32,000 nt of DNA, taken from Candidatus Saccharimonadota bacterium (lineage in GTDB: Bacteria; Patescibacteriota; Gracilibacteria; UBA4473). The stretch is from contig OZ245819.1 of the NCBI GenBank assembly GCA_965228485.1, positions 690,001 through 722,000 of the forward strand, in the 5' to 3' direction. Under the pieces are notes generated by a model. The model had not been told where the DNA came from and searched no databases. It worked only from the letters and a program-made list of their open reading frames with translations. Of the stretch, positions 2,850 to 23,173 are shown piece after piece. The position numbers were made by a program, and so were the translations under genes. The first letter of the stretch is position 1. Each line of letters begins with the position of its first letter.

Positions 2850-2873
2850 TTTATTTTTTATTTATATTATCTG

Positions 2874-6404: not shown

Positions 6405-6413
6405 CTATAATGA

Positions 6414-8123: not shown

Positions 8124-8128
8124 ATTGA

Positions 8129-8674
8129 TTAAAAAGCAGCTTGCATAACAGTGTTAACAATGGCGTAAGAAGCGAGAATAACAAGAATCCCGATTATACA
8201 CCAGATAATAATTTTCTTGGCTGACTCCATACGACTGTCGTCTCCAAGTGACGTAATATAAACGATCCCTGCCCAGACTAGAGCCACAACGGCAATAACT
8301 GCTGTGACAGCCAAGAGGAAGTTTGTCCATCCAATAATAAGTTCTTTAATATCTCGTTCTTTAGAAACGCCATCATCTAAATACTGTTCTACAACATTAG
8401 CGCCTCCTTCTAGGCCTGGACCATTAAAAACTGGTCCCCCATAAGGAAGAGCAATATTTCCATTGTTAGAAGTCGTTCTGGTCGTCCCTGCCTGGTTCCC
8501 TCGTTGACGAAGTGTTTGGTTTATATAAGAGTCCAATTGACCACTCAGCTGTTGATTACTCGTACTACTACCAATATTTTGCTGAATAAAACTATCAAAA
8601 TCCGCAGCCTCTACTTTCCCAGAAAGCAAAACAGCTACGACTAAACTAAAACATAGAACTAAAGCTTTTTTCAT
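8129..8674 (-). CDS. VirB2/TrbC-like (T4SS-pilin-like) small secreted two-TM protein
   Basis: The track ORF starts at 8725, but the internal ATG at 8674 gives a clean signal peptide MKKALVLCFSLVVAVLLSGKVEA/ADF. The C-terminus is a two-helix hairpin with a short charged loop: FLLAVTAVIAVVALVWAGIVYITSLGDDSRMESAKKIIIWCIIGILVILASYAIVNTVMQAAF. Signal peptide plus terminal hairpin is the VirB2/TrbC pilin topology. The family assignment is from memory, without an HMM run. Confidence 0.6.
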   Translation of the reverse strand: MKKALVLCFSLVVAVLLSGKVEAADFDSFIQQNIGSSTSNQQLSGQLDSYINQTLRQRGNQAGTTRTTSNNGNIALPYGGPVFNGPGLEGGANVVEQYLDDGVSKERDIKELIIGWTNFLLAVTAVIAVVALVWAGIVYITSLGDDSRMESAKKIIIWCIIGILVILASYAIVNTVMQAAF

Positions 8675-8708
8675 TTGTGTTTTTGTTATTCTGCCTATTT
8701 TACCACAG

Positions 8709-8717
8709 ATTATAACA
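8709..8717 (-). promoter_or_regulatory. Extended -10 promoter element (TGTTATAAT) for the pilin/PKD operon
   Basis: The minus strand reads ...TTGAATTGTGTTATAATCTGTGG..., which contains a TGnTATAAT match. It lies ~35 nt upstream of the ATG at 8674 and just downstream of the purL-C stop at 8744. No convincing -35 element was found. Confidence 0.4.
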
Positions 8718-8743
8718 CAATTCAAAAGAAAAAAAATTTTGTC

Positions 8744-9766
8744 CTAGAAAATATCCCTTAAAGAATTTTTCCAAACTGAGGTCAGTTCAACAGTATCGGA
8801 TTCAAACACAACTTCATTTGCAGATTTAATCACAACCTCACCTTTCGTCACTCTCCCCAAACGCATAGCTCCAGTAATGTGAGATAAATTTTCTGATGAA
8901 GAAACTAAAACCCCAAGCCCCTCTCCAAATAGTGTCTCTGGTAAGTCCTCGTCAATATTCAATTCAAAACCCAAACTATTTTTTACAGCTGATTGAAGCG
9001 CTGTAGCCCAAACACCCCCTGGCACAATGGGCAAGATCGAATTTAATTGCTTATTTTTTAATGCTTCTCTTAGTTCATTACAAAATCCATCAAAAACTTT
9101 ATAATTTACTGCTGGAAGATTTGTATCAGAGGCTTCAACATATTCTAAAAATTCACTTCCAGACAGAGACAACGGCAATCCTAAAAACCAAATATTATTT
9201 CCCTCATCAGAAAATGATAAAGGAGATACTGCATCCACTTCATCTACTCGAGCAAAAACTGATACCAAAGCACTTGGCGGCACAGACCTCCCTGAAGACT
9301 CATTATATAGAGAGACATTTCCTGAAACGATTGGAATCTCCAATTTTTCACACGCCATTTTTACTCCCTCAATTCCCTGAACAAGCTCAGCCATTTGCTC
9401 CTTTTTTTCTGGATTCCCAAAATTCAAACAATCCGTAGCTCCTAACCAACTCCCTCCCACAGAAGCTGTTTTTAATGCTGCCTCACAAATAGCTAATTCA
9501 GCAGCAAGCTTAGGATCAATTAGGGCTCTGTAAGGATTACCCCCCGTTCCAACAACTACTCCTATTTCAGCCAGATCGTCATCTAATTCTGAAAAATCTC
9601 TAAAAGGCACTACGACACTGGCAGCAAAATCTCCACGCTCACAAGCCGTATTCCCCTGAACATTCTTATCGTACTTTTCATAAATTGGTAATCGACTAGC
9701 AACGTTAGGTCGAGAAAGGATATCTACTAAACACTGGCTAATTGAGATTTTTTTCATCACTCGCAT
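8744..9766 (-). CDS. purL: Phosphoribosylformylglycinamidine synthase II (PurL), C-terminal half only (second PurM-like repeat)
   Basis: 340 aa. The N-terminus LVDILSRPNVASRLPIYEKYDKNVQGNT matches the conserved LL..PNIASK..Y.QYD start of the second half of small PurL. It continues with GGNPYRALIDP, ATDCLNFGNPEKKEQM and IPIVSGNVSLYNES, which are AIR-synthase-type motifs. The start codon is its own ATG, facing a 50-nt divergent intergenic region. Confidence 0.75.
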   Translation of the reverse strand: MRVMKKISISQCLVDILSRPNVASRLPIYEKYDKNVQGNTACERGDFAASVVVPFRDFSELDDDLAEIGVVVGTGGNPYRALIDPKLAAELAICEAALKTASVGGSWLGATDCLNFGNPEKKEQMAELVQGIEGVKMACEKLEIPIVSGNVSLYNESSGRSVPPSALVSVFARVDEVDAVSPLSFSDEGNNIWFLGLPLSLSGSEFLEYVEASDTNLPAVNYKVFDGFCNELREALKNKQLNSILPIVPGGVWATALQSAVKNSLGFELNIDEDLPETLFGEGLGVLVSSSENLSHITGAMRLGRVTKGEVVIKSANEVVFESDTVELTSVWKNSLRDIF

Positions 9767-9816
9767 TGTGCTTATTTTGATGAAAAAAACAAAAATATAT
9801 ATTAAACTTTTCTCCG

Positions 9817-10179
9817 ATGCGAATAGATAAATGGATATGGGCTGTCAGAATGACAAAGACTCGAACCTTAGCCGCCAAACTCTGTGATCAGGGAAAAGTC
9901 TTACTCAATGATCAAAAAATAAAAGGATCCAAGAATATTAATCTGGGAGACATAATTACCGTCCATAAAGAAGTCACCCTAAAATATGAAGTTATTGGAT
10001 TTATAGAAAAACGAGTCGGAGCAGAAAAAGCACGAGAGTTTTATACTGATCATAGCCCTATTGAAACCATAGAAGGCAAAAACAGTGACTCCAGCCAATA
10101 TTGGGGGCAACGAGAAAAAGGCGAAGGTCGCCCAACAAAAAAAGACCGCAGAGCTATTGAGAAGATTAAAAATTGGTAG
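9817..10179 (+). CDS. hslR: S4-domain RNA-binding protein, Hsp15/HslR-like (ribosome-associated heat-shock protein)
   Basis: 120 aa. MRIDKWIWAVRMTKTRTLAAKLCDQGKVLLNDQK is the S4/Hsp15 alpha-L motif. The C-terminal GRPTKKDRRAIEKIK resembles the RRPDKKERRDLLRFK tail of E. coli Hsp15 (recalled from memory). Confidence 0.65.
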   Translation: MRIDKWIWAVRMTKTRTLAAKLCDQGKVLLNDQKIKGSKNINLGDIITVHKEVTLKYEVIGFIEKRVGAEKAREFYTDHSPIETIEGKNSDSSQYWGQREKGEGRPTKKDRRAIEKIKNW

Positions 10180-10185
10180 AAAAAA

Positions 10186-10210
10186 AACCTCAGAGCAGAG
10201 CCCTGAGGTT
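10186..10210. terminator. Bidirectional intrinsic terminator between convergent genes
   Basis: Stem AACCTCAG (10186-10193) pairs with CTGAGGTT (10203-10210) around a 9-nt loop. An A-run lies on the left and a T-run (TTTTTTATT) on the right. It sits between the hslR-like stop (10179) and the stop of the minus-strand gene (10235). Confidence 0.65.
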
Positions 10211-10234
10211 TTTTATTAATCAAATGAAGAAATA

Positions 10235-12964
10235 CTATTGTGCTTCACAACGCATAAACTCTTTTCTCTCTTCACAAACTTTTGAAAAGTCTTCACTGTC
10301 TTCGTAACACTCATTCCATTCCCTCCATAAAACTCGACACTGAGTATTTTCTCGGCATTCCATCTCGTCATAAATCTGATTACAAGCTTTTTTATCTAGC
10401 TTAAGTCTGTTTACTTCTTCTACATCACTCCATGTATGAGCTTCAATCACATTTGGAGAAATGGTGAAGAAATTATCTCCAATGTAGATAATTCTTTGAA
10501 TGTTGTATTCATGATTTCCCCATCTACGAGTATTTTTATCTGACCAATAATCATCACTATAGTGAGTGGCTTTTCCTTTCAGTTGAAAACCTTCTTCTAA
10601 GCTCACATCATAAACAAAAGCTCCGTTGTAGCTCTGGCGAGCAGGCTGATAACCATTTTGAGCCGCTCCATCTTTTGTCATAACAGTAATTGGTAAGGCC
10701 ATAATTCCCTCAGCTTTATCAAAAAGTAATGCCTTATGATTATTAAGCACTTCACTGTAACTTCCCGTATCTCCAATAACCTTTTTATGAATTTCTTTTG
10801 GATTATTCACGTTTGATACATCAAAAATAGCTAACTTCACTCCCAAAACTTCATCAGGACTCAATCGATCATCCTCTTCTGCTCCTTCTTTTACCTCTTT
10901 CCCAAGACCAATAAGATGATTCTCATCGTAAGGATGTAGATAATCAGACCATCCTGGAATTTTCAATTCTCCCAAGACTTTTGGATTAGTAGGATTTAGA
11001 TCAATCACAAATAAGGGATCTACATTTTTAAAGGTTACCATATAACCTTTATTCCCCATAAATCGAACCGATTTGATATTCTCTCCTGGAGCAACCCCAT
11101 CAACCTTTCCGGTTAATTTTAAATTTTTATCCAGAATGTTCATCATCGATCCCTCTTGATTCATTTGTGTGGCAATTCGGAAATAATCCCCCTGTTCGCT
11201 CATTGAAAACTGATTTAATACGGAACCATCTACTTCTCCCTTCGCCACAAAATCAATGTTATTTTCATCCAGAGCAAACTTATAGATTTCCGTCACAGGA
11301 TTCCACTGCCAACCATCCCAAGAACGCCCCGTTATAAATCGTTCTTTGTGTTTTGTTCTCGTCACATAGAGATTGTTTGTAGAAGCATAAATTTGATTCC
11401 CACTTCCGAGCATCATAATTCGACCAACTTTTTCACTCGTATCTTTGGTATTAATTGCCCCAATAATTAAGAAATTTGAATCTTCAAAATTTGGGAAATA
11501 ATGAATATCCTGGCACGGAGCAATCATTTTTTCTGATGCATTGGCAGAATCTTCCATTATTGGAAGGTCTGTGTTTCTTAACATTGGAACTGGTCTTCCC
11601 CAATACCAATTTTGGTATTTATTGGTAACCAAATAAACTACATCACCAATCTTCCGAGATTGAGTGTAATTCCCTTCTAAGCTCACTTTTCTAATCTCTG
11701 TTGGATTTGATCGATCTGAAATATCAAAAGAGATAAGTGTCGTTAGCTGCTTATTTGTCCCTCCTGGATATGGCATCCCTGGCATAACCATTAATGCCAC
11801 TTCTGCTCGGGACTCAATTAAACGAGCATCTTCAGCAGAATCATCAAGAAAAATATCCGCATCATCAAAAAACTCTGGATCTTCCCATTCAAGCTCTTCT
11901 TCCAAAGGCATTGACTCCTTAACAGCTGGATAAACATTATACGAATTAGTTTGTCCTACTATGGTTAGAATATCTCCATCTACATACATCTCTCGTGGCC
12001 AAAAACCCTTGTCAGCAACAGACAAATTCGCCACTTCTTTCATTTGATCTGATGGAAAAGCTTTTACGATTCGAACGGCATTTTCTTTGATCATATAAAT
12101 ATGAGAGCCATCATTTTTAATGATATCGGCTTCATCAACACCGAATTCTTGAATATTTGTAGTAGAAAATTTTTCGGACCCCCCGCCTCCAATAGAAGAC
12201 TGAGTAGTAACTCCTTCTGATCTAGCCATAGCAGGCATATCGGATTCCATCATCTCCATATCCATAGCATCATCCATAAATAAGGCATTTCGACCATACA
12301 TTCCCTGCCCTTGTCTTTTTTGAAATTTTTTCATCTGCACATTCAGTGCTTCACAAGATTCAATTTTTGGTAAAACCAAATCCGATTCCCCAACTTCATT
12401 TCCTGTATCGATACCCCAAATCATTTGAGCCATCTCTCCTCTGCTAATTTTCTTAGCAATATCAGAGACTGACCCTGGCACGATTCTTTCACGACCGAGC
12501 GCTTGAGTAAACGGCTTAAACCACTCTGCTGAATCTTCTTCTTCAACTTCAACCTCTTTAACCTTGGCAATAATTTTGCTGGCTTCAGCAAAATTTATTG
12601 TATCACCTGGCTTAAAACTTCCATCTGGATATCCTTGGACAATACCCTTTTTCGTTGCCTGACAGATAATATTGTAGAACCATTGACCAGGTCTTACATC
12701 ATCGTAATCCACAATTGAATCACAAGTAGTACTATCTTTCTCAGAAGACTCTAGAACGATTTTTAAAAACTCAGCTCGGTTAATATCCTGTTCTGGCTTA
12801 AAAGTTCCATCTTCATATCCCTCTACCACTCCTTGATCTACCAAATATTGAACTGCCTTTGAGGCATTTGTTCCTTTGGCGTCTAATAATTCTGGAGATA
12901 TCTGATTGGCTAACGCCAAAACAGGCACCACTAGAGCAAAGGCCGCTAAACTAAATTTTTTCAT
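10235..12964 (-). CDS. Secreted cell-wall protein: signal peptide, 3 SLH-like repeats, beta-propeller domain (COG4880/Beta_propel-like), Cys-rich C-terminus
   Basis: 909 aa with signal peptide MKKFSLAAFALVVPVLALA. SLH-like repeats: AVQYLVDQGVVEGYEDGTFKPEQDINRAEFLKIVL and KKGIVQGYPDGSFKPGDTINFAEASKIIAK. FSTTNIQEFGVDEADIIKNDGSHIYMI is typical of the secreted beta-propeller family (recalled). The last 50 aa contain 7 Cys. Confidence 0.7.
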   Translation of the reverse strand: MKKFSLAAFALVVPVLALANQISPELLDAKGTNASKAVQYLVDQGVVEGYEDGTFKPEQDINRAEFLKIVLESSEKDSTTCDSIVDYDDVRPGQWFYNIICQATKKGIVQGYPDGSFKPGDTINFAEASKIIAKVKEVEVEEEDSAEWFKPFTQALGRERIVPGSVSDIAKKISRGEMAQMIWGIDTGNEVGESDLVLPKIESCEALNVQMKKFQKRQGQGMYGRNALFMDDAMDMEMMESDMPAMARSEGVTTQSSIGGGGSEKFSTTNIQEFGVDEADIIKNDGSHIYMIKENAVRIVKAFPSDQMKEVANLSVADKGFWPREMYVDGDILTIVGQTNSYNVYPAVKESMPLEEELEWEDPEFFDDADIFLDDSAEDARLIESRAEVALMVMPGMPYPGGTNKQLTTLISFDISDRSNPTEIRKVSLEGNYTQSRKIGDVVYLVTNKYQNWYWGRPVPMLRNTDLPIMEDSANASEKMIAPCQDIHYFPNFEDSNFLIIGAINTKDTSEKVGRIMMLGSGNQIYASTNNLYVTRTKHKERFITGRSWDGWQWNPVTEIYKFALDENNIDFVAKGEVDGSVLNQFSMSEQGDYFRIATQMNQEGSMMNILDKNLKLTGKVDGVAPGENIKSVRFMGNKGYMVTFKNVDPLFVIDLNPTNPKVLGELKIPGWSDYLHPYDENHLIGLGKEVKEGAEEDDRLSPDEVLGVKLAIFDVSNVNNPKEIHKKVIGDTGSYSEVLNNHKALLFDKAEGIMALPITVMTKDGAAQNGYQPARQSYNGAFVYDVSLEEGFQLKGKATHYSDDYWSDKNTRRWGNHEYNIQRIIYIGDNFFTISPNVIEAHTWSDVEEVNRLKLDKKACNQIYDEMECRENTQCRVLWREWNECYEDSEDFSKVCEERKEFMRCEAQ

Positions 12965-13086
12965 TAAAATGAATTTTAAGAATTTATATCTGTTTTTATT
13001 AACTAAAAACTAGATCAATTTGTGACATAAGTAAAGAACCATATTTAATAAAAAGCTTTATTTTATGAGGGTTTGTGTTTTTTATT

Positions 13087-14775
13087 TTATCCCGCTACAC
13101 GATACACTTCTTCAAGGGTTGTCTCACCTAAAAGGACCTTTCTAAATCCATCCTCAAATAGCGTTAGATAATAAGGCTGTGTTTTAGCTACAAACTCTCT
13201 CAAATCAATTTCCGTAAGCCCCTCTGCCACACGAGCCCTCAGTTCATCAGAAAAATCAACCGTCTCACAAATCACCGTTTGATCTACAAATCCTGTGTGA
13301 GAACATTTTTCACACCCCTGTGGCTCATAAATGTGGATGTATTGAATATTCCCGTCTTCATCAACCTCAACTGAAAGCGAATCCAAAATATCTGGATAAA
13401 CTTCAATCACCCGAGAAAATGCTTCTTTTGCCTCTGGGTGTTTGTTGAGATCAAATTTAACTTTTTTACGACAGTGTGGACATATTTTTCGTACTAATCG
13501 CTGAGCGAAAATTGCATTAATAGCCGCCGCAATATTGAAGTATTCTAACCCTAAATTATTTAGACGAGTAATCGCTCCCAAAGCGGAATTTGTATGTAGA
13601 GAACTAAAAACTACATGACCAGTAAGAGAGGCCTCTGCGGCAAGTTTCGCTGTAGACAATTCTCGAATCTCACCAATAAGAATAACGTCTGGATCATGTC
13701 TCAACAAAGCCTTTAAGCCGTTTGAAAAATTATACTCAGAATTTTCATCGACTTGGGATTGAGTTACATTATCTAGATGATATTCAATCGGATCTTCTAA
13801 AGTTACTAATTTTTTCTCGGCTTCATTAAGCTCCGCAAGCATAGAGTATAATGTTGTTGTTTTCCCACTTCCTGTTGGACCGGTCACCAAAACCATCCCA
13901 TTTTTATGCCCGATCGCTTTTCGAATACTACTTTCAATATGAGGCTCAAATCCGAGGTCACTAAAAGTTTTGATTCCTTTCCGACTATCAAGTACCCGCA
14001 TAACAACCGATTCAAAAAATTCTGTTGGTAGGGTTGAAACCCTTAAGTCTACATCACGATTATTAGCTCTAAATGAGATATGACCATCTTGAGGAATGTG
14101 AAAAATATTCGATTTCATTCCTGCGATATACTTAATATGCGAGACTAGTTTTTCAGCTCTGTCTTTAGGTAATGGGCAAATATCATGAAGAATCCCATTA
14201 ATTCTAAATCGAAGTAATCCTTTCTCTTCATAAGGCTGTATATGAATATCAGAAGCCCTAACCTGCAGAGCGGTAATTTCAATCTCGTTAAGCGCTTCTT
14301 GTGCCTGAAGGTTTTTCAGTTTTGTTTCCAAATCTCCGAGCCCTATGAACTGTTCCTCAAAAGTCTTACCATCTTTCTCATCAAATTGTTCTTTCAACTC
14401 TACTTTTTTTCGGTTAATGAGCTTAGAGCCATAATGCTTTAAAATCTCGTTAAGTCCGTTCTCAGAACAGACATTCATCTCGATCTCAAAACGATCAACC
14501 TCAAGTCTGTTTACAATTTTTTGTACCACTCTATCTTCTGGATTAACGGCTGCTAAACGAAGCTTAAAACCACTTCTAAAGAACGGCACCAGTTCAGCAC
14601 TTCGAGCTTCAGACTCTGATACAAACTGTAAAACTTCTGGGTTTATCGGAAACTTAGAAAGATCTATGTAGTTAAGCTGAAGCTTAGTCGCTAAGTCTTG
14701 CGCTTCTCTTTCTTCAAATTCTCGATTGATGTCACCAACAGGATTTCCTGTTGTTAAGTTTTGAGATGAATCCAT
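13087..14775 (-). CDS. pilB: Type IV pilus assembly ATPase PilB (GspE family)
   Basis: 562 aa. N-terminal T2SSE_N-like region, Walker A VTGPTGSGKTTTLYS, Asp-box/Walker B DPDVILIGEIRE, His-box LTGHVVFSSLHTN, and a tetracysteine motif CPHCRKK...CEKCSHTG. Confidence 0.9.
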   Translation of the reverse strand: MDSSQNLTTGNPVGDINREFEEREAQDLATKLQLNYIDLSKFPINPEVLQFVSESEARSAELVPFFRSGFKLRLAAVNPEDRVVQKIVNRLEVDRFEIEMNVCSENGLNEILKHYGSKLINRKKVELKEQFDEKDGKTFEEQFIGLGDLETKLKNLQAQEALNEIEITALQVRASDIHIQPYEEKGLLRFRINGILHDICPLPKDRAEKLVSHIKYIAGMKSNIFHIPQDGHISFRANNRDVDLRVSTLPTEFFESVVMRVLDSRKGIKTFSDLGFEPHIESSIRKAIGHKNGMVLVTGPTGSGKTTTLYSMLAELNEAEKKLVTLEDPIEYHLDNVTQSQVDENSEYNFSNGLKALLRHDPDVILIGEIRELSTAKLAAEASLTGHVVFSSLHTNSALGAITRLNNLGLEYFNIAAAINAIFAQRLVRKICPHCRKKVKFDLNKHPEAKEAFSRVIEVYPDILDSLSVEVDEDGNIQYIHIYEPQGCEKCSHTGFVDQTVICETVDFSDELRARVAEGLTEIDLREFVAKTQPYYLTLFEDGFRKVLLGETTLEEVYRVAG

Positions 14776-14781
14776 CCCGCC

Positions 14782-14790
14782 ATTATACCA
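14782..14790 (-). promoter_or_regulatory. Extended -10 element (TGGTATAAT) immediately upstream of pilB
   Basis: The minus strand reads TTCTGGTATAATGGCGGGATG. Only 6 nt separate the -10 hexamer from the pilB ATG at 14775, which implies a leaderless or near-leaderless mRNA if this promoter is used. Confidence 0.4.
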
Positions 14791-14819
14791 GAAAACCCCT
14801 AAAAAATAAAGTGAGGATT

Positions 14820-15161
14820 CTATCTATTTTCAAGAGCCTCTAGGCGTGCTTCAAGTTCTTTGTTTTGGTGTTTCAAAGCTTCAATTTCAGCATCTTTTTC
14901 TGCTTTTAGATCCTGAATTGCCTTCGCTAAAATGGCATTAAATGACTGATATTTAACGGATTCCACTTCACCTTCATTTCCATAAATCGCTAAATCTGGC
15001 ACAAGGCCAGCCACTTCCTCAGCGATTAAACCATAATCATGTTCTTCATTATTCTTCCAATCAAATTTAACAGGGATTAGATTTTGCACTGTCTCTAAAC
15101 CAAGATCTAAATCAATAATATTCAGTAACAATAACGACGCCAGATCTCCCGCCTGCATCAC
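14820..15161 (-). CDS. Tail-fibre C-terminal intramolecular-chaperone-like (peptidase S74-like) domain plus coiled coil; different frame from the upstream fibre gene; start uncertain
   Basis: LETVQNLIPVKFDWKNNEEHDYGLIAEEVAGLVPDLAIYGNEGEVESVKYQSFNAILAKAIQDLKAEKDAEIEALK matches the remembered S74 chaperone-domain pattern (L.pV.F.wk....GfIAqEv..v.Pe.v........v.Y..l...li.a.qeL). The frame opens at 15176 and overlaps the 3' end of the 15112-16986 ORF by up to 50 nt in the +1 frame. The only starts are GTG 15161, ATG 15158, or an internal TTG. Confidence 0.55.
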   Translation of the reverse strand: MMQAGDLASLLLLNIIDLDLGLETVQNLIPVKFDWKNNEEHDYGLIAEEVAGLVPDLAIYGNEGEVESVKYQSFNAILAKAIQDLKAEKDAEIEALKHQNKELEARLEALENR

Positions 15162-16986
15162 CCGATCCGCCAGACCCTACAGTAACGGTCACCGTTGGAC
15201 CCAGCGAAGAAGCGGCAATCCTTTTTTTACAATATCCTCCACCACCTCCAGCAGTTCGGCCGCCATCGTTACCAAGTCCCCCTCGACCATATTGGCCTCC
15301 CATAGCCGAATGACCACCTGCAAAACTATTCGACCCTCGTTCACCTGTAAGATTAAGGTCACCACCACTAGCACCAGCACCGCCACCGCCAGATCTCCCA
15401 CCTGCACCGCCATTTGCAGTACAATGCGATCCAAACGATGAGGCCGCTCCATTATGACCCCAATGGTTACCGCCGCCACCGCCACCGACAGCTTCAACGA
15501 TCACAGCCGTCAACCCTGCTGGCTTAGTCCAAGTCGTCGAAGAAGTATACACACGATACTCCGGCGCACCACCACCGCCAACAACGCTATCAACATAAGC
15601 CTTATTCGCCGCATCATTCGCCGCCGTCGGCGTGGCCACATTCACAATCTTATTAGAATTCAAATCAATGACACCAGCCACATCCAACTTTGCATCTGGC
15701 GCCGTCGTCCCAATCCCAATATTCCCATTTCCTAGATTCAAGGTCATCATATCACCGCCACCACCAGTAGAAGAAAATCTAGCTGTATCCTGAGCTCCTG
15801 CATAAGTTTTTATTCTTAATGAGTCTGTAGCATTACTAATAATTAAGCCGTCATCACTAGCTCCACCATTAACTTTCATGTCTCCGACCACCTGAAGCGC
15901 ATGAGATGGATTTGTCGTCCCAATTCCAACCTTCCCACTAGCATTAACAGTCAGAACGGTAGTTCCTGGTCCGCTATTAAATTTTGCTAAGTCCCCTGTT
16001 TGAGAATTATTTCCTTCCACTACAAGAGGAGTGGAAGCTGGGTGTTCTGATTTTGCAAATACCCCGACTCCATTAGGGCTATAACTCTCTCCCCACACAC
16101 CAAATACATACCCGCTAGAAGCTTGCGCTGTCCCACGAACAGCGGTTCCAGTTGTACTGTAATTCATACCATAAATACTTGTAGAATATTCTGCAGACGC
16201 GTCAGCGTTACCATAAATCCCTATTCCATATTGTCCCATAGCATTCCCATAAACCCCTATTCCATTTTGACCACTCGAAACACCAGAAACTCCTTGTCCA
16301 TTTGTTACGGTGCTTACTGAAGATATGGCAGCGTCCGTACCGTTACTGACAGAGGCCTGGATTCTACCATTTACCTCTAATTCTGTCGTTGGACTTGAAA
16401 CTCCAATTCCTACTCTCCCATTCTCTTGTATTTTCATAAGTTCAGCCCAATTTCCTCCTGGTCCAGGAGCATTTTTTCCGATAATTAAAGCTCGATTGTC
16501 ATTATCGTTATTATTCCAGTCCATAGAGATGTAGACATTGTCTTCTCCGTTTAATTCCAGCGCCCCACTACTATCATATACGGTTCCCCCTCTTACGAGC
16601 AAAGTTCCATCTATCTGGAGATCACCGTCTTCATCAATATTGGCTTTATCTGCATCGGCTCCCGTTCCAATCTGGAAAAGTTTTTCATTGGCCGCAGGGG
16701 ACTCTTTATGTACAGAAAATTGCGCTGGAGGTACGGCTGTCCCAACTCCAACCTGTCCGTTAGTATAGTACATATCTCCACCACTAGAATTCCAGAGCTG
16801 GTTGCTCAGAATATCTATCGCTGATGATATGGTAATAAGATCTGAGCGTACTTTGTTCCAGTCAGAGGCTCGAATAAGCTCCCCACTGTTTACCGTCGGA
16901 GTCGTTATCGTTACTGCGGCGTTTACTTTTAAGCATGGCACAAATACTGTCAGGGCAAATATCGAACTTAGAAGAAATTTTTTCAT
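15112..16986 (-). CDS. Secreted phage-tail-fibre-like protein with C-terminal glycine-rich domain
   Basis: 624 aa with signal peptide MKKFLLSSIFALTVFVPCLKVNA. A motif recurs four times: GQVGVGTAVPPAQFSV, GRVGIGVSSPTTELEV, GKVGIGTTNPSHALQV, GNIGIGTTAPDAKLDV. KIVNVATPTAANDAANKAYVD is a motif recalled from phage tail-fibre proteins. The C-terminus reads TWTKPAGLTAVIVEAVGGGGGGNHWG...GGGGAGASGG...GGGGGYCKK...GVVIVTEYY, a polyglycine-rich domain. Confidence 0.7.
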   Translation of the reverse strand: MKKFLLSSIFALTVFVPCLKVNAAVTITTPTVNSGELIRASDWNKVRSDLITISSAIDILSNQLWNSSGGDMYYTNGQVGVGTAVPPAQFSVHKESPAANEKLFQIGTGADADKANIDEDGDLQIDGTLLVRGGTVYDSSGALELNGEDNVYISMDWNNNDNDNRALIIGKNAPGPGGNWAELMKIQENGRVGIGVSSPTTELEVNGRIQASVSNGTDAAISSVSTVTNGQGVSGVSSGQNGIGVYGNAMGQYGIGIYGNADASAEYSTSIYGMNYSTTGTAVRGTAQASSGYVFGVWGESYSPNGVGVFAKSEHPASTPLVVEGNNSQTGDLAKFNSGPGTTVLTVNASGKVGIGTTNPSHALQVVGDMKVNGGASDDGLIISNATDSLRIKTYAGAQDTARFSSTGGGGDMMTLNLGNGNIGIGTTAPDAKLDVAGVIDLNSNKIVNVATPTAANDAANKAYVDSVVGGGGAPEYRVYTSSTTWTKPAGLTAVIVEAVGGGGGGNHWGHNGAASSFGSHCTANGGAGGRSGGGGAGASGGDLNLTGERGSNSFAGGHSAMGGQYGRGGLGNDGGRTAGGGGGYCKKRIAASSLGPTVTVTVGSGGSGDAGGRSGVVIVTEYY

Positions 16987-17080
16987 TTATTTTTTTATTT
17001 CGCTCCCCCAGAGTAGTTATTTTTATAATTTTGGAAAACCATCTAATGATCCTAAGGCGACCTGAAAGTAAATCATTTTT

Positions 17081-17110
17081 TTGACGGTAACACATTAAAC
17101 CCCCTACAAT
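17081..17110 (+). promoter_or_regulatory. Sigma70-type promoter for the pilus operon (TTGACG - 18 nt - TACAAT)
   Basis: TTGACG at 17081-17086 and TACAAT at 17105-17110. The -10 element ends 27 nt upstream of the ATG at 17138. Confidence 0.5.
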
Positions 17111-17137
17111 AAGCTCTGACTGGTAAAAAAATAAAAA

Positions 17138-17647
17138 ATGAATTACGAAAAACCACAAAAGAAAAAGCGATCTGTGCTAAATATAATTTTGTGCTTCTTT
17201 ATTCTCTCTGCCTTTGCCTCTGCAGGGCTAGTTTCTTGGAAAAACATTGAAGCTGATAATCTGGAAAAAGAATACAAAAAGGCCATTGAAAACCAAGAAC
17301 GACAAATCAAAGAAATGATGGAAAATGATCAGATTGGAGCGAAAACAAAGGCTAAAAACATACTTACAAAAGCACAAGACTTTCGAATTGAGTGGTCAAA
17401 AATTTCTTATACCGTTCTCAGGGAACTTGAAAGTGAAGAAATCCAATTCGACCGGATTAGTGCTGGAAATAACAAATATTTTACCATTTCTGGCAGAGCC
17501 AAAGACCTACGATCAATTGCTCGACTTATTGCTAAAATTCGACAACACGAAAATTTTTCTGATCCATTTGTCTCAAATCTATCTAAAAATGGATCTTTAA
17601 ATCTACCAACAAATTTCAATCTAACCTTCTACTATATTGAATCATAA
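17138..17647 (+). CDS. PilN-like pilus assembly protein (bitopic, coiled coil)
   Basis: 169 aa. Short basic N-terminus, one TM helix (VLNIILCFFILSAFASAGLV), then a coiled-coil/periplasmic-type domain. It is the first gene of the pilus operon and is coupled to the next gene through a TAATG overlap. The assignment rests on architecture and context only. Confidence 0.4.
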   Translation: MNYEKPQKKKRSVLNIILCFFILSAFASAGLVSWKNIEADNLEKEYKKAIENQERQIKEMMENDQIGAKTKAKNILTKAQDFRIEWSKISYTVLRELESEEIQFDRISAGNNKYFTISGRAKDLRSIARLIAKIRQHENFSDPFVSNLSKNGSLNLPTNFNLTFYYIES

Positions 17648-18162
17648 TGAGAAATTCTATTATCTGGCTATCTTTAATTTCTGTAATTATTTACGGAGCC
17701 TGGACCTTCCCTCAATGGAACGAGTGGCAGGATAAACGTATTGAACTAAATAAACTTGAGAAAACCACAAAAGAAAAAACCGAGTCCATCAAAAAGTTAA
17801 AACAAACTCAGGCAAATTTAGAGTCTACAGAAGAAGATACACTTCTAGATCAAGTACCCTTAACCCTAAAACAAGAGCTCATCATGCTTGATCTACAAAG
17901 AATTGTTCAAGAAAGTGGTTTTATCTTTGATGGTCTAAGTTTTGCCAAAAAACAAAACAGTCAAGTTGAAGCTCCTGAGCTTATTATCACTTTCTCAGCT
18001 CAAGGTAAAAAAACTTCCATCCCAAGCTTTCTAAAACGAATTGAAGAAAACCAGCGCTTCATGGGTTTAAGAGATCTAAAATTTTCAGAAGGAGAACTTA
18101 ATGAAGTCCCTATTGCAACAATTTCAGCGAGTGTTTATAGCTTCGCTCAATCTGACAAATAA
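17647..18162 (+). CDS. PilO-like pilus assembly protein (bitopic, coiled coil)
   Basis: 171 aa. N-terminal TM helix (IIWLSLISVIIYGAW), then coiled coil (RIELNKLEKTTKEKTESIKKLKQTQANLES), then an alpha/beta-like C-terminus. TAATG overlaps occur on both sides. Confidence 0.4.
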   Translation: MRNSIIWLSLISVIIYGAWTFPQWNEWQDKRIELNKLEKTTKEKTESIKKLKQTQANLESTEEDTLLDQVPLTLKQELIMLDLQRIVQESGFIFDGLSFAKKQNSQVEAPELIITFSAQGKKTSIPSFLKRIEENQRFMGLRDLKFSEGELNEVPIATISASVYSFAQSDK

Positions 18163-19364
18163 TGGTTATGAAAAAAGCATCAAAAAATACTCAATCAAAT
18201 AAGAAAACTGCTTGGGAGCAGTTACAAAACCCTAAACTAAGATCTGTAATTTATGGAGTGACTAATAGGGACAATGATCCATGGTACATAAAATTAAATG
18301 ATTTTCTTTTAGATCATCAACCTTTATCACTTAAAGATAAAGCGCGTTTTTTTCACTCTTTAAAACTACTCGTAAATTCTGGAGTTCAATTCATTCGAGC
18401 CATTGAAATGCTCGCAGACCGAGCAAAACATGTAGGCTTTTCAAGAACACTGCATACGGTTGCTTATGACATGGAACACCGCGGACTTTCATTTTCAGAA
18501 AGTATTCAAAAATATCCCAATATATTCGCCCCATCTGAAGTAAAAATGATCTATTCGGGAGAACTTACAGGGAAAATTGATAAAACACTAGATTCGATCG
18601 CCAGCCAGTTACAAAAAAATATTGAGCTTGAAATGCGAATCAAATCAGCTTTGATGTATCCTATAACGGTTGTCATTGCGATCATTTTAGCCGGAATTGC
18701 CGTGATGATTTTTATTGTCCCAAAACTTACAGAACTGTTTTTGGAATTCGATAGCAAACTGCCTATCAGTACCAAAATTTTGATGGCTATATCGAACTTT
18801 ATGGTAAGTTTTTGGTGGCTAGTTTTAACTATCGCTATTGGTGTTTTCTTTTGGTTCAAAACCTGGAAAAGTTCAGAAGAAGGAAAACGAAAATATGATG
18901 AAATCATGCTTGAGCTTCCTGTTATAGGTCCAATGGTAAACCTCATTCAAACCGTAAGAATTAGTAGTAACTTTTCAACACTCATGGAGTCAGGAATTCC
19001 TTTAAATAAAGCATTAAGAGTACTTGGAGAAATTGTTCCAAACCGTATTGTCGGAGAATCAATTTTTGCCGTTGAAATGGAAGTAAGAAAAGGAGAATCG
19101 CTCCACCAATCATTTTTAAAACAAGAACGCCTAGATCCAGTACTTGGAGAAATTTTAGAAGTTGGAGAAAAGACTGGACACATTGCTGAGGTCTTAAAAA
19201 AACTAAGTGATCAGTATGAGTTGGAAGTTGAAGCTCAACTCAAAAATCTCTCAACGATTATTGAACCAATAATTATCCTTATCGTTGGAATAGCGGTTGT
19301 ATTTATGATGTTTGCCGTTCTTACTCCAATCTTCCAGATTCAAGAATTATTTGCTAACGCCTAA
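18162..19364 (+). CDS. pilC: Type IV pilus platform protein PilC (GspF family)
   Basis: 400 aa. Two GspF-type repeats and three hydrophobic segments (MYPITVVIAIILAGIAVMIFIVP; FWWLVLTIAIGVFFWF; IIEPIIILIVGIAVVFMMFAVLTPIF). Typical SG.pL..al and G...G.l...l motifs are present. Confidence 0.85.
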   Translation: MVMKKASKNTQSNKKTAWEQLQNPKLRSVIYGVTNRDNDPWYIKLNDFLLDHQPLSLKDKARFFHSLKLLVNSGVQFIRAIEMLADRAKHVGFSRTLHTVAYDMEHRGLSFSESIQKYPNIFAPSEVKMIYSGELTGKIDKTLDSIASQLQKNIELEMRIKSALMYPITVVIAIILAGIAVMIFIVPKLTELFLEFDSKLPISTKILMAISNFMVSFWWLVLTIAIGVFFWFKTWKSSEEGKRKYDEIMLELPVIGPMVNLIQTVRISSNFSTLMESGIPLNKALRVLGEIVPNRIVGESIFAVEMEVRKGESLHQSFLKQERLDPVLGEILEVGEKTGHIAEVLKKLSDQYELEVEAQLKNLSTIIEPIIILIVGIAVVFMMFAVLTPIFQIQELFANA

Positions 19365-19862
19365 ATGATATCGTTGAACCACCACAGTAAAAAACACAAA
19401 CTAGGCTTCACCCTAGTTGAGATTTTAGTTGTGGTAACCATTATTGGAATTATCGCTGCAATATTGGTACCAAACTATCTGGAGTTTTATAAAAAAAGTA
19501 ATCTTGAAAGCACCATAAAACTAACTCAGGCTACTCTCTCTGAAGGTTTCTCATATGCTCGTTCAAGATCAAATCATTTCCTCGTGGTTGGAACACAAGG
19601 ACAAACTTTTATAGAAGTTCAGTCTTGTGATGATCTTGCTTGTAGTAGTACAACAACACAGGAGAAGTTTGATTTTCTAGGGTCCAATAAACTTAAAAGT
19701 AACGACTTAAAAATTAAGTTTCTTGCCCCTCACGGAGATTTAGAATTCCCAGATGAAGCGTCTTCTGTTGAAGAAATTATTATAAAAATTGGCGATGATA
19801 CCCTCGAAAGAAGTATAAAAATTTATAAAAAATCAGGCCTTATAGAAACTGATCCTCAATAA
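19365..19862 (+). CDS. Minor pilin, GspH/FimU-like, with class III (prepilin) signal
   Basis: The leader MISLNHHSKKHKLG is followed by FTLVEILVVVTIIGIIAAILVPNY (G/F cleavage site, Glu5). FSYARSRSNHFLVVG and the terminal RSIKIYKKSGLIE resemble the GspH/FimT pattern (recalled). Confidence 0.65.
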   Translation: MISLNHHSKKHKLGFTLVEILVVVTIIGIIAAILVPNYLEFYKKSNLESTIKLTQATLSEGFSYARSRSNHFLVVGTQGQTFIEVQSCDDLACSSTTTQEKFDFLGSNKLKSNDLKIKFLAPHGDLEFPDEASSVEEIIIKIGDDTLERSIKIYKKSGLIETDPQ

Positions 19863-19864
19863 AA

Positions 19865-20407
19865 ATGATCATGAAGACAAAAGGATTCACATTAATCGAA
19901 GCCATTGCTACAATGGTAATCCTTGCGTTTGCAATGTCTGGTGCTTTATACCTTTTAAGTAGTATTATTTTTGCTACCGAAAAAAATGAGAAACGACTTA
20001 TGGGAACTTATCTCGCACAAGAATGTACTGAACTTGTAAGAAACGCTCGAGATACAGCCTGGAAAAAAAGACTTCCATGGGACAAGGCTTTCGAATCACC
20101 GACTCCGTTATCTGCAAAATTCATTATTGAGGCGGACCACAATAATATGGCACCACCAATCTCTGGCGAGTCCTTTGGATTACTAATTAAAGAAATTAGT
20201 AGCGATAGTGAAGCAAAACTATATCTTGATGGAAGCGCTTACACACATACTCCTTCTACCACTCCTACTGAGTATAGCCGGTTTTTTACGATAAAAAGTA
20301 AGGGCGCTAACGCTATTGCAATAGAGTGTGCTGTGGAGTGGAAATATCGAGGACAGGACGAAAAAGTCGCCATCAGTACAATCCTTACTAACTGGTACAA
20401 AAACTAG
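19865..20407 (+). CDS. Minor pilin, PilV/GspI-like, with prepilin signal
   Basis: MIMKTKG/FTLIEAIATMVILAFAMSGALYLL: G/F cleavage site, Glu5 and a hydrophobic helix. 180 aa. Confidence 0.65.
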   Translation: MIMKTKGFTLIEAIATMVILAFAMSGALYLLSSIIFATEKNEKRLMGTYLAQECTELVRNARDTAWKKRLPWDKAFESPTPLSAKFIIEADHNNMAPPISGESFGLLIKEISSDSEAKLYLDGSAYTHTPSTTPTEYSRFFTIKSKGANAIAIECAVEWKYRGQDEKVAISTILTNWYKN

Positions 20408-20408
20408 A

Positions 20409-20951
20409 ATGCCAATAAAGAAATTACCAAAGACTCAATACCAAAGATCAGGATTCACCCTGATAGAACTTTTGGTAGCGGTTGTTATCTCTGGAATAGT
20501 ACTGGTAAGTGTTATGAGCAGTTTTTGGCTTTTTATTCAGACGCATCAAAAAGCTGAAGCCAATCGAGAACTTCAAAGGGAAGTTCGTTTTGCTATGACG
20601 AGAATCGCCGATAAAACTCGAAACTATTCTATTAAGTACAGCGAATATCAGTCAGGAGGTAATTGTCCGCCTTCTATTAATCAAAATCATAAACTCTGCT
20701 TAGAGGATCACTCTTTTGAATTTAGGGACGGAAATCTTTGGCTTGAAGATCAACCAATATTTTCCGAAAATAAATTTAAAGTAAACGATGCTTTTTTTGG
20801 TTTTTCTCCGGACGAAGATCCTAAGATAAATCTTGGAGAACTAGACTTACAAATTCAGCCAAAAGTAACGGTCTACTTAGAAGTAGAATCAAAAAGAGAT
20901 AGTAATATTAATTTCGAAGTACAAACGAGTCTTTCATCCCGAAAATACTAA
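20409..20951 (+). CDS. Minor pilin, PilW/GspJ-like, with prepilin signal
   Basis: The track ORF begins at 20328 inside the previous gene. The ATG at 20409, 1 nt after the previous stop, gives MPIKKLPKTQYQRSG/FTLIELLVAVVISGIVLVSV with a canonical prepilin site. Confidence 0.65.
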   Translation: MPIKKLPKTQYQRSGFTLIELLVAVVISGIVLVSVMSSFWLFIQTHQKAEANRELQREVRFAMTRIADKTRNYSIKYSEYQSGGNCPPSINQNHKLCLEDHSFEFRDGNLWLEDQPIFSENKFKVNDAFFGFSPDEDPKINLGELDLQIQPKVTVYLEVESKRDSNINFEVQTSLSSRKY

Positions 20952-21824
20952 ATGAAATTTATATCAATATACCAATCAGTTAATAAAAAAAAGCGAGGTT
21001 CATCGCTTCTTATTGCTATATTTCTGTCTGGACTAATTTTAACCATTGGAATTACAGCCAGTCGGCTACTACTCAAGGATGTCAGTTTTGCCGCTGATTC
21101 TATTATGTCAGAAAAAGCTTACTATAGTGCTGAATCGGGTGTTGAATCTGCGCTTTGGGAACTGAGAAATGAGCCGGTTCAACATATGATGAACATTAAT
21201 GCTCCTGCGAGTATAAATGTTGAATATGATCTGAGTATTGTTAATAAAATTGAACCGAGTGCTGTTGCACCACTTAAAAATAAATTTTATTTCACACTTA
21301 ATAAACTAGCCAATCAACAATTTCGACTTCGCTATGATGCTAATAACAGTACTTCAACCAGTCTCCAAAGCCCAAGCAATTTTAGATTAAAGGCCACGCC
21401 TCAGGGAGTAGGAACGGTTGAGTACCAATGGAAATTTACCTGCCAAGATAATACCGCCACAAAAAATACCTTTGCGCTGGAAAAAAATCCGAGCCACTCA
21501 AGTCCGAGTAATGTAAACGATTTTCTAACCTCCCAAACAGGTTGTCATTCTGAAATTTTTTCTAGCTGCTCCAACGAAACCTTTAATACCTGGGCGGCAA
21601 CAAGAAATATTGATAAATCATCCTGTTTCTTAATGATTCAAAACTTAAGTGACACTCCAACAAAATTCACTTTCTCAAATACCACTATGGCCCCTCATCA
21701 AGCTAAAATTATCGCCATAGGAAAAAGTGCCGATCGAGAAAAACACATCGTTTTTGATTACGCTCAAAAAAACATTGGATCACTCTTTAACTTCACCTTC
21801 TTTCATACAGAAATTGGCCTCTAA
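20952..21824 (+). CDS. PilX/GspK-like minor pilin (non-canonical prepilin N-terminus without Glu5)
   Basis: 290 aa. MKFISIYQSVNKKKRGSSLLIAIFLSGLILTIGITASRLL fits the PilX_N pattern (RG-S-x-L-hydrophobic helix, no Phe1/Glu5). It starts immediately after the previous stop and is the last gene of the operon. Confidence 0.55.
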   Translation: MKFISIYQSVNKKKRGSSLLIAIFLSGLILTIGITASRLLLKDVSFAADSIMSEKAYYSAESGVESALWELRNEPVQHMMNINAPASINVEYDLSIVNKIEPSAVAPLKNKFYFTLNKLANQQFRLRYDANNSTSTSLQSPSNFRLKATPQGVGTVEYQWKFTCQDNTATKNTFALEKNPSHSSPSNVNDFLTSQTGCHSEIFSSCSNETFNTWAATRNIDKSSCFLMIQNLSDTPTKFTFSNTTMAPHQAKIIAIGKSADREKHIVFDYAQKNIGSLFNFTFFHTEIGL

Positions 21825-23122
21825 GCCACGCAAATATTTTTACCGTCAAAAGACACCTTCACCGTTGACTGCTTGGCTGATTTAGCTTTATATGGTCGAT
21901 CATAAATAATTCCTTCCGTTACGACTTTTGCAGGTGCATCTAGAAGTATTTCATCTTTAAATTTAACGACATACTGACCATCTCCACGAACTTTACCGAC
22001 TACGCTAGCCCCAGCATTTTTAGCTACTTTTCCAAGCTCCCAGACATTTTTAAAGTGATCAACAATTCGATTAGTTAAACTAGGGTGGCATGCAAAACAG
22101 AAACGTTCTTGAGTTTCTGAACACGCAATGACATGAGGAAGAAATCCATCTTTCGCAACATGAAGTTCCGAAAGATCTACCTCGGCTCCAAAACCACCAC
22201 CTTCGGCTAATTCGACCGTTGCACAAACTACTCCTCCCGCTCCAAGATCTTTAAAAGCAATTTTATCATACAAGTTATCCGCTTTTAATTTTTTTAATAA
22301 GTCTTGAATTGAAGCCAACAAATGTCGTTCTAAAAACGGATTTGGTTCTTGTACTGCGGCTTTTTTAGACTCTAAATCATCAGATTCCTCAAAACTATCT
22401 GAGGCAAAGCTCGCTCCTCCAAATCCAGAGTTATCTGTTGGTTTCCCAATAATAATAAACTCCCATTCTTCTTCAGCGGCTTGTTCTGGCACGTAAGAAT
22501 GAATTAAATCCGAAGCTCTCAGTGCTCCAATGGCCGTTACATTTACTAAGCAGTTATCATTAAACCCGTTATCAAAATATACATCTCCTCCGATATTTGG
22601 TACTCCTAGAGGATTACTATATCCAGCGATTCCATCAACCACTCCTGTGGCGATATTTTTTTGTAAAAGTTTCGTTGGATTTCCCAGACGAAGGTGATCA
22701 AGTGTTCCTACTGGTCGCGCTCCCATACACATAATATCACGAACAATTCCTCCAATTCCTGTTGCGGCTCCTTCGTAAGGCACGATTTGAGAGGGATGAT
22801 TGTGCGATTCATGTCCAACAGCGATACAATAAGTTTCACCGTTATTTTCAAAGACTTTCAATACCCCAGCATCCTCTGATGGACCAAGTAATACCGTTGG
22901 TCCAGAAGTAGGGAATCCACTTAAAAATGGTCGAGAACTTTTATAACTACAGTGCTCAGAAAGTTGAATTCCAAAAACCACAGCTTCACACAACGTCATT
23001 GGTCGTCCAATCTGTTCTTGTAGATTTTGTGCCTCTGAAAGTTTCAGAGCAATATTATGAGTTTTTAGTAACTCTTCGGCATTATCGGCAAAGAAATCGA
23101 GCTTAATAGTACTTTCTGACAT
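21821..23122 (-). CDS. purL: Phosphoribosylformylglycinamidine synthase II (PurL), N-terminal half only (first PurM-like repeat)
   Basis: 433 aa. SEHCSYKSSRPFLSGFPT, GPSEDAGVLKV, HESHNHPSQIVPYEGAATGIGGIVRDIMCMGARPVG and GKPTDNSGFGGASFAS are hallmark PurL N-half motifs. The ORF ends ...IIYDRPYKAKSAKQSTVKVSFDGKNICVA*, in the linker that precedes the second repeat. Its stop overlaps the convergent pilX-like gene by 4 nt. Confidence 0.8.
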   Translation of the reverse strand: MSESTIKLDFFADNAEELLKTHNIALKLSEAQNLQEQIGRPMTLCEAVVFGIQLSEHCSYKSSRPFLSGFPTSGPTVLLGPSEDAGVLKVFENNGETYCIAVGHESHNHPSQIVPYEGAATGIGGIVRDIMCMGARPVGTLDHLRLGNPTKLLQKNIATGVVDGIAGYSNPLGVPNIGGDVYFDNGFNDNCLVNVTAIGALRASDLIHSYVPEQAAEEEWEFIIIGKPTDNSGFGGASFASDSFEESDDLESKKAAVQEPNPFLERHLLASIQDLLKKLKADNLYDKIAFKDLGAGGVVCATVELAEGGGFGAEVDLSELHVAKDGFLPHVIACSETQERFCFACHPSLTNRIVDHFKNVWELGKVAKNAGASVVGKVRGDGQYVVKFKDEILLDAPAKVVTEGIIYDRPYKAKSAKQSTVKVSFDGKNICVA

Positions 23123-23145: not shown

Positions 23146-23173
23146 AGTATATTTTTTGCTGCAACATTATCAA
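23146..23173 (-). promoter_or_regulatory. Sigma70-type promoter for the purL N-half (TTGATA - 16 nt - TATACT)
   Basis: The minus strand reads TTGATAATGTTGCAGCAAAAAATATACT. The -10 element (23146-23151) ends 23 nt upstream of the ATG at 23122. Confidence 0.5.

Follow-up and report, generated by a model that had tools for sequence, protein, structure and literature searches.

Does a purL gene that lies in two pieces, at either end of a pilus and wall-protein cluster, represent a broken gene or an enzyme made of two chains? This question is raised by a 32,000-nucleotide stretch (hereafter the window) of contig OZ245819.1, positions 690,001 to 722,000, from assembly GCA_965228485.1 of Candidatus Saccharimonadota bacterium. 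PurL, subunit II of formylglycinamidine ribonucleotide (FGAM) synthetase, is a textbook example of an enzyme that arose by duplication of a PurM-like unit and fusion of the copies within one chain. Two open reading frames (ORFs) of the window, 21821-23122 (N-half) and 8744-9766 (C-half), which lie in N-to-C order on the minus strand, encode the two complementary halves of a PurL, as had been proposed in an original prediction made from the DNA letters. The fission that separated them, treated there as an event of this genome, is ancient and common to a whole monophyletic clade, while sister lineages keep an intact purL. We consider it likely that small PurL was cut at its linker clade-wide, and that both halves have been kept as parts of a three-polypeptide FGAM synthetase, composed of PurQ-PurS-PurS, PurL-N, and PurL-C.

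The assignment of the two ORFs rests on domains, model coverage, and motifs. The N-half carries the Pfam domains FGAR-AT_linker, AIRS, and AIRS_C, and AIRS/AIRS_C are found on both halves. Of the 723 positions in the NCBIfam PurL model PRK01213, the N-half matches 1-372 (E 2.5e-114) and the C-half 383-722 (E 6e-58), a complementary and essentially gap-free coverage that places the cut at the predicted pseudo-repeat boundary and completes the domain complement of linker, A1, B1, A2, and B2 across the two ORFs. Likewise, residues 8-366 and 394-666 of Thermus thermophilus PurL (3VIU) align with the N-half and the C-half, respectively, and the combined length of 433 + 340 = 773 aa compares with 757 aa in the nearest intact PurLs. 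The motifs quoted in the prediction (SEHCSYKS, HESHNHPS, GAATGIGGIVRD, and LVDILSRPNVAS...YEKYD) were all recovered. The active-site motifs are all located in the N-half, and its hallmark motifs SEHC.YK, ESHNHPS, GAATG.GG..RD, D.{4}GARP, D.GAGG, and SE.QER, and with them all catalytic motifs, are retained and invariant in the clade. The C-half retains TDCLNFGNPE and PIVSGNVSLYNE. Neither half alone attains a curated family cut-off: PRK01213 gives 383 bits for the N-half and 197 bits for the C-half against a cut-off of 648, which their sum of 580 does not reach either, and TIGR01736 gives 372 and 187 bits against 525.75, a value exceeded by their sum of 559.

Alignment with the intact sister PurLs places the break in the variable linker between the halves, after the conserved YDRPY and before the helix KI..L...L.S.N[IV][AS]S..PIYEKYDK.VQG, and no conserved block is missing at the break, which bears out the expectation that nothing had been lost there. 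About 13 aa of the N-half tail and about 5 aa of the C-half head lie outside the PurL model. The N-half stops at TAG after a short conserved tail (...VKVSFDGKNICVA). The C-half has, as predicted, its own start facing a divergent intergenic region, although the real start is probably the second ATG, at 9757, rather than the first; this would give a protein of 337 aa (MKKISI...), matching the database protein and the homologues, which begin at MKKI. The tail at 21821-21865 (...VSFDGKNICVA) still corresponds to '...ISFDFGKIN...' of the intact linker, the head at 9740-9766 (MKKISISQCL...) matches its 'GKINFEEIL...', and a 'GK(I/N)' element is kept on both pieces. The junction pattern recurs clade-wide, with tails like ..F..GE[IV]VF and heads like MKKI.L. 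The shared element might be a short junction duplication that dates from the gene-cutting event.

A search of 5.8 billion proteins with each half returned about 63 clusters of N-half homologues (427-434 aa, 62-81% identity) and about 93 clusters of C-half homologues (331-379 aa, mostly 335-350; 39-51% identity), while intact PurLs of about 757 aa, from Peribacteraceae and Peregrinibacteria, appeared only at ≤55% identity to the N-half. In a survey of 34 named genome loci and six contigs (loci are given L numbers below), an adjacent C-half was absent at 18 of 18 split-clade loci and beside every N-half of ≥68% identity, whereas the C-part directly continues the N-part in 21 of 23 loci at ≤55% identity; the two exceptions are a split-clade locus (L036) and one that ends at a contig edge (L037). 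The relatives within the clade thus carry the same split, and contiguous purL was met in the sister lineages. The split sequences are monophyletic in 30 of 30 bootstraps of a neighbour-joining tree. Their owners are Gracilibacteria/Peribacteria-like metagenome-assembled genomes (MAGs) of small-genome bacteria that belong to the candidate phyla radiation (CPR), and both halves co-occur in all seven genomes where the pairing is checkable. In several members the halves are unlinked: in GCA_964343715.1 the C-half adjoins a his operon and the N-half is a neighbour of nrdD; the KAI58 and K9L27 MAGs have the two halves on different contigs according to their locus tags; and the context at L122 is different again. 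The full layout, N-half, type IV pilus genes, SLH gene, S4 gene, and C-half, is found in the window and in an independent 14.5-kb contig with a gap of 10.2 kb.

A divergent pair from JGI sample 3300033146, P0087 (L124:4443-5735, 430 aa) and P0226 (L123:8001-9083, 360 aa), is also split at the same linker and encoded on different contigs, with identities of 52% and 37%. Its placement as sister to the split clade is weak (19 of 30 bootstraps). A single ancient fission that covers the split clade and P0087/P0226 would be the simplest reading, and an independent second fission at the same permissive site the alternative.

Both halves are under purifying selection. The pairwise ratio of nonsynonymous to synonymous substitution rates (dN/dS, ω) within the clade is 0.03-0.07 for the N-half and about 0.2-0.3 for the C-half, well below 1 in both cases; these are rough estimates, as synonymous sites approach saturation (dS 1-2.7). 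More than 100 alignment columns are invariant in the N-half, and 30 in the C-half despite a mean identity of 46%. When universally conserved columns were defined as those ≥90% conserved in 55 diverse intact PurLs, 87 of 116 were kept in the N-half and 39 of 51 in the C-half. The persistence of both pieces after their separation is hard to square with decaying fragments.

The search for partner genes used hidden Markov models (HMMs) built from verified PurQ, S, F, M, N, C, and B sequences, which were taken from metagenome loci with intact PurLs (about 30% identity to the C-half). Four clade members have, two genes upstream of the N-half, a gene of about 410-425 aa with a PurQ domain (L016:7374-8651, L014:1186-2457, L015:7492-8907, and L017:6826-8229, all on the minus strand), and the long PurQ measures about 410-440 aa across lineages. 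Its PurQ domain corresponds to residues 1-240, and the remaining 170-185 aa have no family match. Against the TIGR01737 cut-off of 177.8 bits, the PurQ domains of the four relatives score 179.2 and 186.8, which reach it, and 173.1 and 170.2, which fall below. The long PurQ is spread throughout the split clade and also occurs in further CPR lineages (Peregrinibacteria, Magasanikbacteria), and so predates the PurL fission. The gene for one such protein, P0274 (416 aa), shares its 1,295,315-bp contig with both halves of the window, and the source genome therefore has its glutaminase.

The model of P0274 (pLDDT 91) has as its best match Thermotoga maritima PurQ (3D54_D). Its extension of 155 aa contains two homologous repeats (hhalign probability 85%) and, when modelled alone (pLDDT 92), folds into two beta-alpha-beta-alpha-beta units. 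A Foldseek comparison of this extension with the PDB returned 15 large-PurL structures with probabilities of 0.96-1.0 and TM scores of 0.52-0.64 over about 150 columns, while all other matches had probabilities ≤0.16. PurS, PurQ, and small PurL are homologous to the N-terminal, glutaminase, and FGAM synthetase domains of large PurL, respectively, and the N-terminal domain bridges the two active sites (PMC7124931). Since a PurS dimer has its structural equivalent in this N-terminal domain (PMC3815217, PMC7124931), the extension is apparently a fused tandem PurS-like module. Of the two partner genes that were to be expected, purQ is thus present in the source genome, while PurS would be there only as this fused module, judged from its fold.

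How could such an enzyme work? The two PurL products would associate non-covalently via the A1/A2 beta-barrel interface, by which PurM-family homodimers and the two halves of intact PurL are also joined, to give a heterodimeric PurL; in known structures the PurL halves form a barrel and half 1 holds the active site (PMC3815217). The N-half would supply the active site for ATP and formylglycinamide ribonucleotide (FGAR), the C-half would supply the barrel partner and the glutaminase-contacting surface, and ammonia would be delivered by the long PurQ with its fused tandem PurS-like module. The enzyme would then consist of PurQ-PurS-PurS, PurL-N, and PurL-C, instead of PurS2, PurQ, and PurL. The break probably came from a rearrangement that placed the type IV pilus cluster after the N-half, a linkage seen in nearly the whole clade, and the arrangement of both halves flanking the cluster 12 kb apart, found in one subclade, may be the least-rearranged state. 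The functional two-subunit alternative offered in the original prediction is thus favoured by the clade-wide conservation, the purifying selection, the catalytic motifs, and the PurQ partner, whereas the heterodimer itself we infer.

Several points weigh against this reading. The assembly of the two halves is deduced from the fold family, and the fused PurS-like module is read from fold similarity as its sole basis: sequence profile comparisons of the PurQ extension with PurS were not significant, and Foldseek gave no region of large PurL matched by the extension. HMMs of PurF, S, B, N, C, and M found no match in the window and in the relatives' neighbourhoods of about 20 kb. No second purL of the source genome appeared among the best 120 matches to the two halves, a list that a distant copy, e.g., a large PurL, may escape. 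In addition, the C-half diverges faster than its counterpart in intact PurLs, with 47% identity versus 62% for the C-part of intact PurLs when the N-part identity is matched at 70-80%. The second-half signatures 'GA.P' and '[HR]D..GG', which correspond pseudo-symmetrically to D.{4}GARP and D.GAGG of half 1 as seen in the 3VIU alignment (domains 2 and 3), are lost in the C-half. At these positions the split clade has GG.W, GG.P, or GA.G, and Pro replacing Asp, and the C-half of the window reads GGSW and LP..GG (residues about 104-107 and 245-246), whereas 18 of 20 intact sister and outgroup PurLs have both signatures and 20 of 20 have GA.P. The second half of PurL, which is catalytically silent and faces the glutaminase, contains an auxiliary ADP site; the role of this half and that of its ADP site are both still described as unknown (PMC3815217). 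The ADP site appears to be degenerate in the split clade, and with the loss of its signatures the role of the C-half may have shifted.

Combining these results, we lean slightly towards a more far-reaching view, in which the duplication and fusion that made PurL has been reversed. The clade would then have a true, long-fixed heterodimer of PurM-like chains, with a silent half devoid of the auxiliary-site signatures and with PurS moved onto PurQ, and the fission may have come about when the type IV pilus locus, which would still mark the break, was inserted or rearranged.

Proteins of the PurM family naturally form homodimers, and it is conceivable, albeit unlikely in our judgement, that the N-half works alone, e.g., as a PurM-like homodimer that acts as an ammonia-dependent FGAM synthetase, while the C-half has drifted to an adaptor or regulatory role and is no obligate partner in a PurL-like heterodimer. 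Such subfunctionalisation would agree with the faster evolution and the higher ω of the C-half, with its lost nucleotide-site signatures, with the confinement of the active-site motifs to the N-half, and with the unrelated contexts in which the unlinked halves are found; PurM is moreover related to small PurL (PMC3261824). It is less compatible with the presence of both halves in every checkable genome and with the C-half motifs TDCLNFGNPE and PIVSGNVSLYNE, which are invariant across 93 clusters. Half 2 also touches the glutaminase in known structures (PMC3815217), and PurQ is retained.

A further and clearly less probable explanation is that the halves are kept for some other amidotransferase-type function in organisms in which the purine pathway is otherwise absent. 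Most CPR bacteria are without de novo nucleotide synthesis (background in PMC11452946), and the other pur genes were not found in the loci scanned. Nevertheless, the catalytic FGAR/ATP motifs are invariant, the PurQ domain attains the TIGR01737 equivalog cut-off in two of four relatives, nucleotide synthesis is reported to be essentially complete in a sister Peribacter lineage (PMC4736985), and clade members have his and other biosynthetic operons. The split-clade members are biosynthetically richer than typical CPR bacteria. In GCA_964343715.1 (L006:11023-19211) the C-half adjoins a his operon that looks complete (hisG, C, D, H, A/F, and IE) with an extra class I amidotransferase. The amidotransferase that abuts the C-half at this locus was considered as a PurQ and rejected, as it is a generic class I enzyme.

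A recent insertion of an island into purL, with the fragments decaying, is very improbable. The halves do have the same orientation and order around a 12-kb unrelated block, in which a GC-rich insert of 2.2 kb is embedded (Table 1). On the other hand, the same split is found in more than 60 divergent clusters with intact frames and constant length, and ω is well below 1 for both halves. The suggestion that an island had been inserted and the fragments persist is also at odds with the intervening DNA, which contains about 12 ORFs instead of the nine counted previously, is native in composition barring 14820-16986, and is syntenic in relatives at 68-76% identity, while in other members the halves are unlinked. 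No flanking direct repeats were found at the junctions, and no recombinase or integrase is among the Pfam-annotated ORFs between the halves.

Still less credible is that the gene is reconstituted, through regulated excision of the skin/nifD type, trans-splicing, or a split intein, as might be imagined for collinear halves in the same orientation. The absence of junction direct repeats and of a recombinase in the interval disfavours excision, and the few extra residues at the break (see above) are far short of split-intein halves of about 100 and 35 aa; moreover, each half has its own start and stop, and in other clade members the halves are far apart or on different contigs. An assembly artefact by chimeric join, in favour of which nothing was found, is the least credible of all, as this layout is shared by assemblies that were made independently, with different pipelines and from different samples (Logan ERR14790946, SRR26541440/41, and NCBI MAGs).

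Table 1. Coordinates of the two purL halves and of the features between and beside them, as positions of the window.
Feature	Position	Strand	Remarks
purL N-half	21821..23122	-	433 aa; N-terminal linker + A1 + B1 domains; FGAM synthetase active-site motifs
purL C-half	8744..9766	-	340 aa from first ATG; A2 + B2 domains, pseudo-symmetric half
Promoter-like site upstream of N-half	23146..23173	-	TTGATA-16-TATACT; 10/12 matches; consensus match only
Promoter-like site upstream of C-half	9794..9823	-	TTCGCA-18-TATATT; consensus match only
S4-domain protein gene	9817..10179	+	120 aa; Pfam S4; divergent from C-half; same position in L004
SLH + beta-propeller wall protein	10235..12964	-	909 aa; Pfam SLH, Beta_propel (E 9e-156)
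PilB-type type IV pilus assembly ATPase	13087..14775	-	562 aa; Pfam T2SSE + MshEN; syntenic in relatives
Window-specific insert	14820..16986	-	2.2 kb; GC 0.44-0.49 versus about 0.38 in flanks
Peptidase_S74 (endosialidase-chaperone) ORF	14820-15161	-	113 aa; other frame, overlaps fibre ORF
Gly-rich fibre ORF	15112-16986	-	624 aa; sole window gene stopping at TGA
Type IV pilus block	17138..21824	+	PilN-like, PilO, PilC, three N-methyl pilins, 290-aa protein; Pfam PilN, PilO, T2SSF, N_methyl

The split clade can be compared with several known arrangements of the same modules. The small PurL complex (T. maritima 3D54/1VK3/2HS0, T. thermophilus 3VIU, and Bacillus subtilis) is of the same family, with the same domain order, shares the N-half motifs, and has a PurQ glutaminase, which is here encoded elsewhere in the genome. 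The split clade differs from it in having two genes cut between B1 and A2, 12 kb apart here and unlinked elsewhere, in the degenerate GA.P and [HR]D signatures of the second half, and in a PurS that is apparently fused in tandem to PurQ, with no separate gene. Each PurL half corresponds to one A+B unit of PurM, the aminoimidazole ribonucleotide (AIR) synthetase, and of the homodimers of its superfamily, and a dimer of two separate chains is the ancestral quaternary form of the PurM family (PMC3261824, PMC3815217). In contrast to those homodimers, the chains here are non-identical paralogues, only one of which has the catalytic motifs, and they would form an obligate heterodimer. The large single-chain PurL (Salmonella Typhimurium 1T3T and human PFAS) comprises the same modules, i.e., a PurS-like N-terminal domain, the synthetase halves, and a glutaminase, and is structurally matched by the PurQ extension of the split clade, but it represents the opposite direction: large PurL is one chain, whereas the split clade would have three (Q+S+S, L-N, and L-C). 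Archaeal mdPurL, in which a PurS-like domain is fused to small PurL (PMC3261824), is another lineage-specific repartition of the same modules; there PurL is intact, while here it is cut in two and PurS is apparently on PurQ.

The split genes of Nanoarchaeum equitans are conserved, functional fissions at domain boundaries with unlinked halves, from another group of organisms and in other genes. The enzyme family is a familiar one, and genes are known to undergo fission. In the literature searched, however, we came across neither a PurL that is divided between its halves nor a PurQ-PurS fusion, and a review of the archaeal pathway describes PurS-PurL fusions only (PMC3261824). The split clade, with its halves separated, both kept, and the auxiliary-site signatures decayed, is a natural experiment that could show whether barrel formation, glutaminase docking, and ammonia channelling require a covalent link and the auxiliary nucleotide. 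This is of moderate interest for enzyme evolution and of practical relevance for the annotation of CPR genomes. The halves are named 'hypothetical' or 'AIR synthase related' in databases, and owing to these uninformative names and to the scores below the cut-offs, pathway reconstructions of CPR bacteria would wrongly count FGAM synthetase as missing or pseudogenised.

The DNA between the halves is organised as follows. The pilus block is convergent on the N-half and is likewise found after it in L001-L004, L007-L010, L013, L015, and L016. A block of pilin, PilC, and PilO genes after the N-half occurs at most split-clade loci and in all major subclades, so that this linkage looks ancestral to the clade; in the deepest branch a type IV pilus cluster is 4 kb away. 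Within the block, the ORF at 20328-20951 (+) is listed with a GTG start that overlaps the preceding pilin gene by 80 nt, and its true start is probably an internal ATG before MPIKKLPKTQYQRSGFTLIELLVAV, a typical prepilin leader. The SLH/beta-propeller gene is syntenic in L001/L004, L002, L009, and L010. In the sister clade with intact purL, an SLH-domain gene lies directly upstream of purL, divergently and at a distance of about 160-400 bp (L021, L023, L025, L030, L032, and L035). This similarity to the SLH gene between the halves of the window may be a coincidence, since the match, at about 30% identity, is confined to the common SLH domain. None of the genes beside the intact purL of the sister clade is a pur gene, and these neighbourhoods are uninformative on the pathway.

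The window-specific insert is placed between pilB and the pilN/O/C block, outside the conserved arrangement, and no homologue of it was found at any relative locus examined. Peptidase_S74 domains normally stand at the C-terminus of the fibre itself, and the arrangement of the two ORFs suggests a phage-tail-fibre-like gene that is frameshifted or frameshift-dependent. As for the promoters, the element predicted upstream of the N-half does exist as a consensus match, yet such sites, including the one upstream of the C-half in the divergent intergenic region of 50 bp that the C-half has in common with the S4-domain gene, are not more frequent than in shuffled sequence.

The relatives are named Gracilibacteria, a group that contains lineages in which UGA encodes glycine. 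A genetic-code artefact of this kind was considered as the cause of the apparent split and rejected, because the N-half stops at TAG, the halves are 12 kb apart, and the relatives use TGA stops. TGA terminates one of the 28 listed genes of the window and one of 21 long non-overlapping ORFs, a deficit that is not statistically significant compared with the clade average of 18%, and no in-frame TGA interrupts the window genes.

Downstream of the C-half, a block at 405-8725 (-), with a counterpart at L121:11287-20124, encodes a membrane protein similar to TrbC and type IV secretion system pilins (8129-8725), a related protein of 569 aa, and giant surface proteins with PKD repeats or coiled coils (1176 and 814 aa). 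The genes for the TrbC-like pilin and the PKD proteins stay linked to the C-half even in a genome in which the N-half is located elsewhere.

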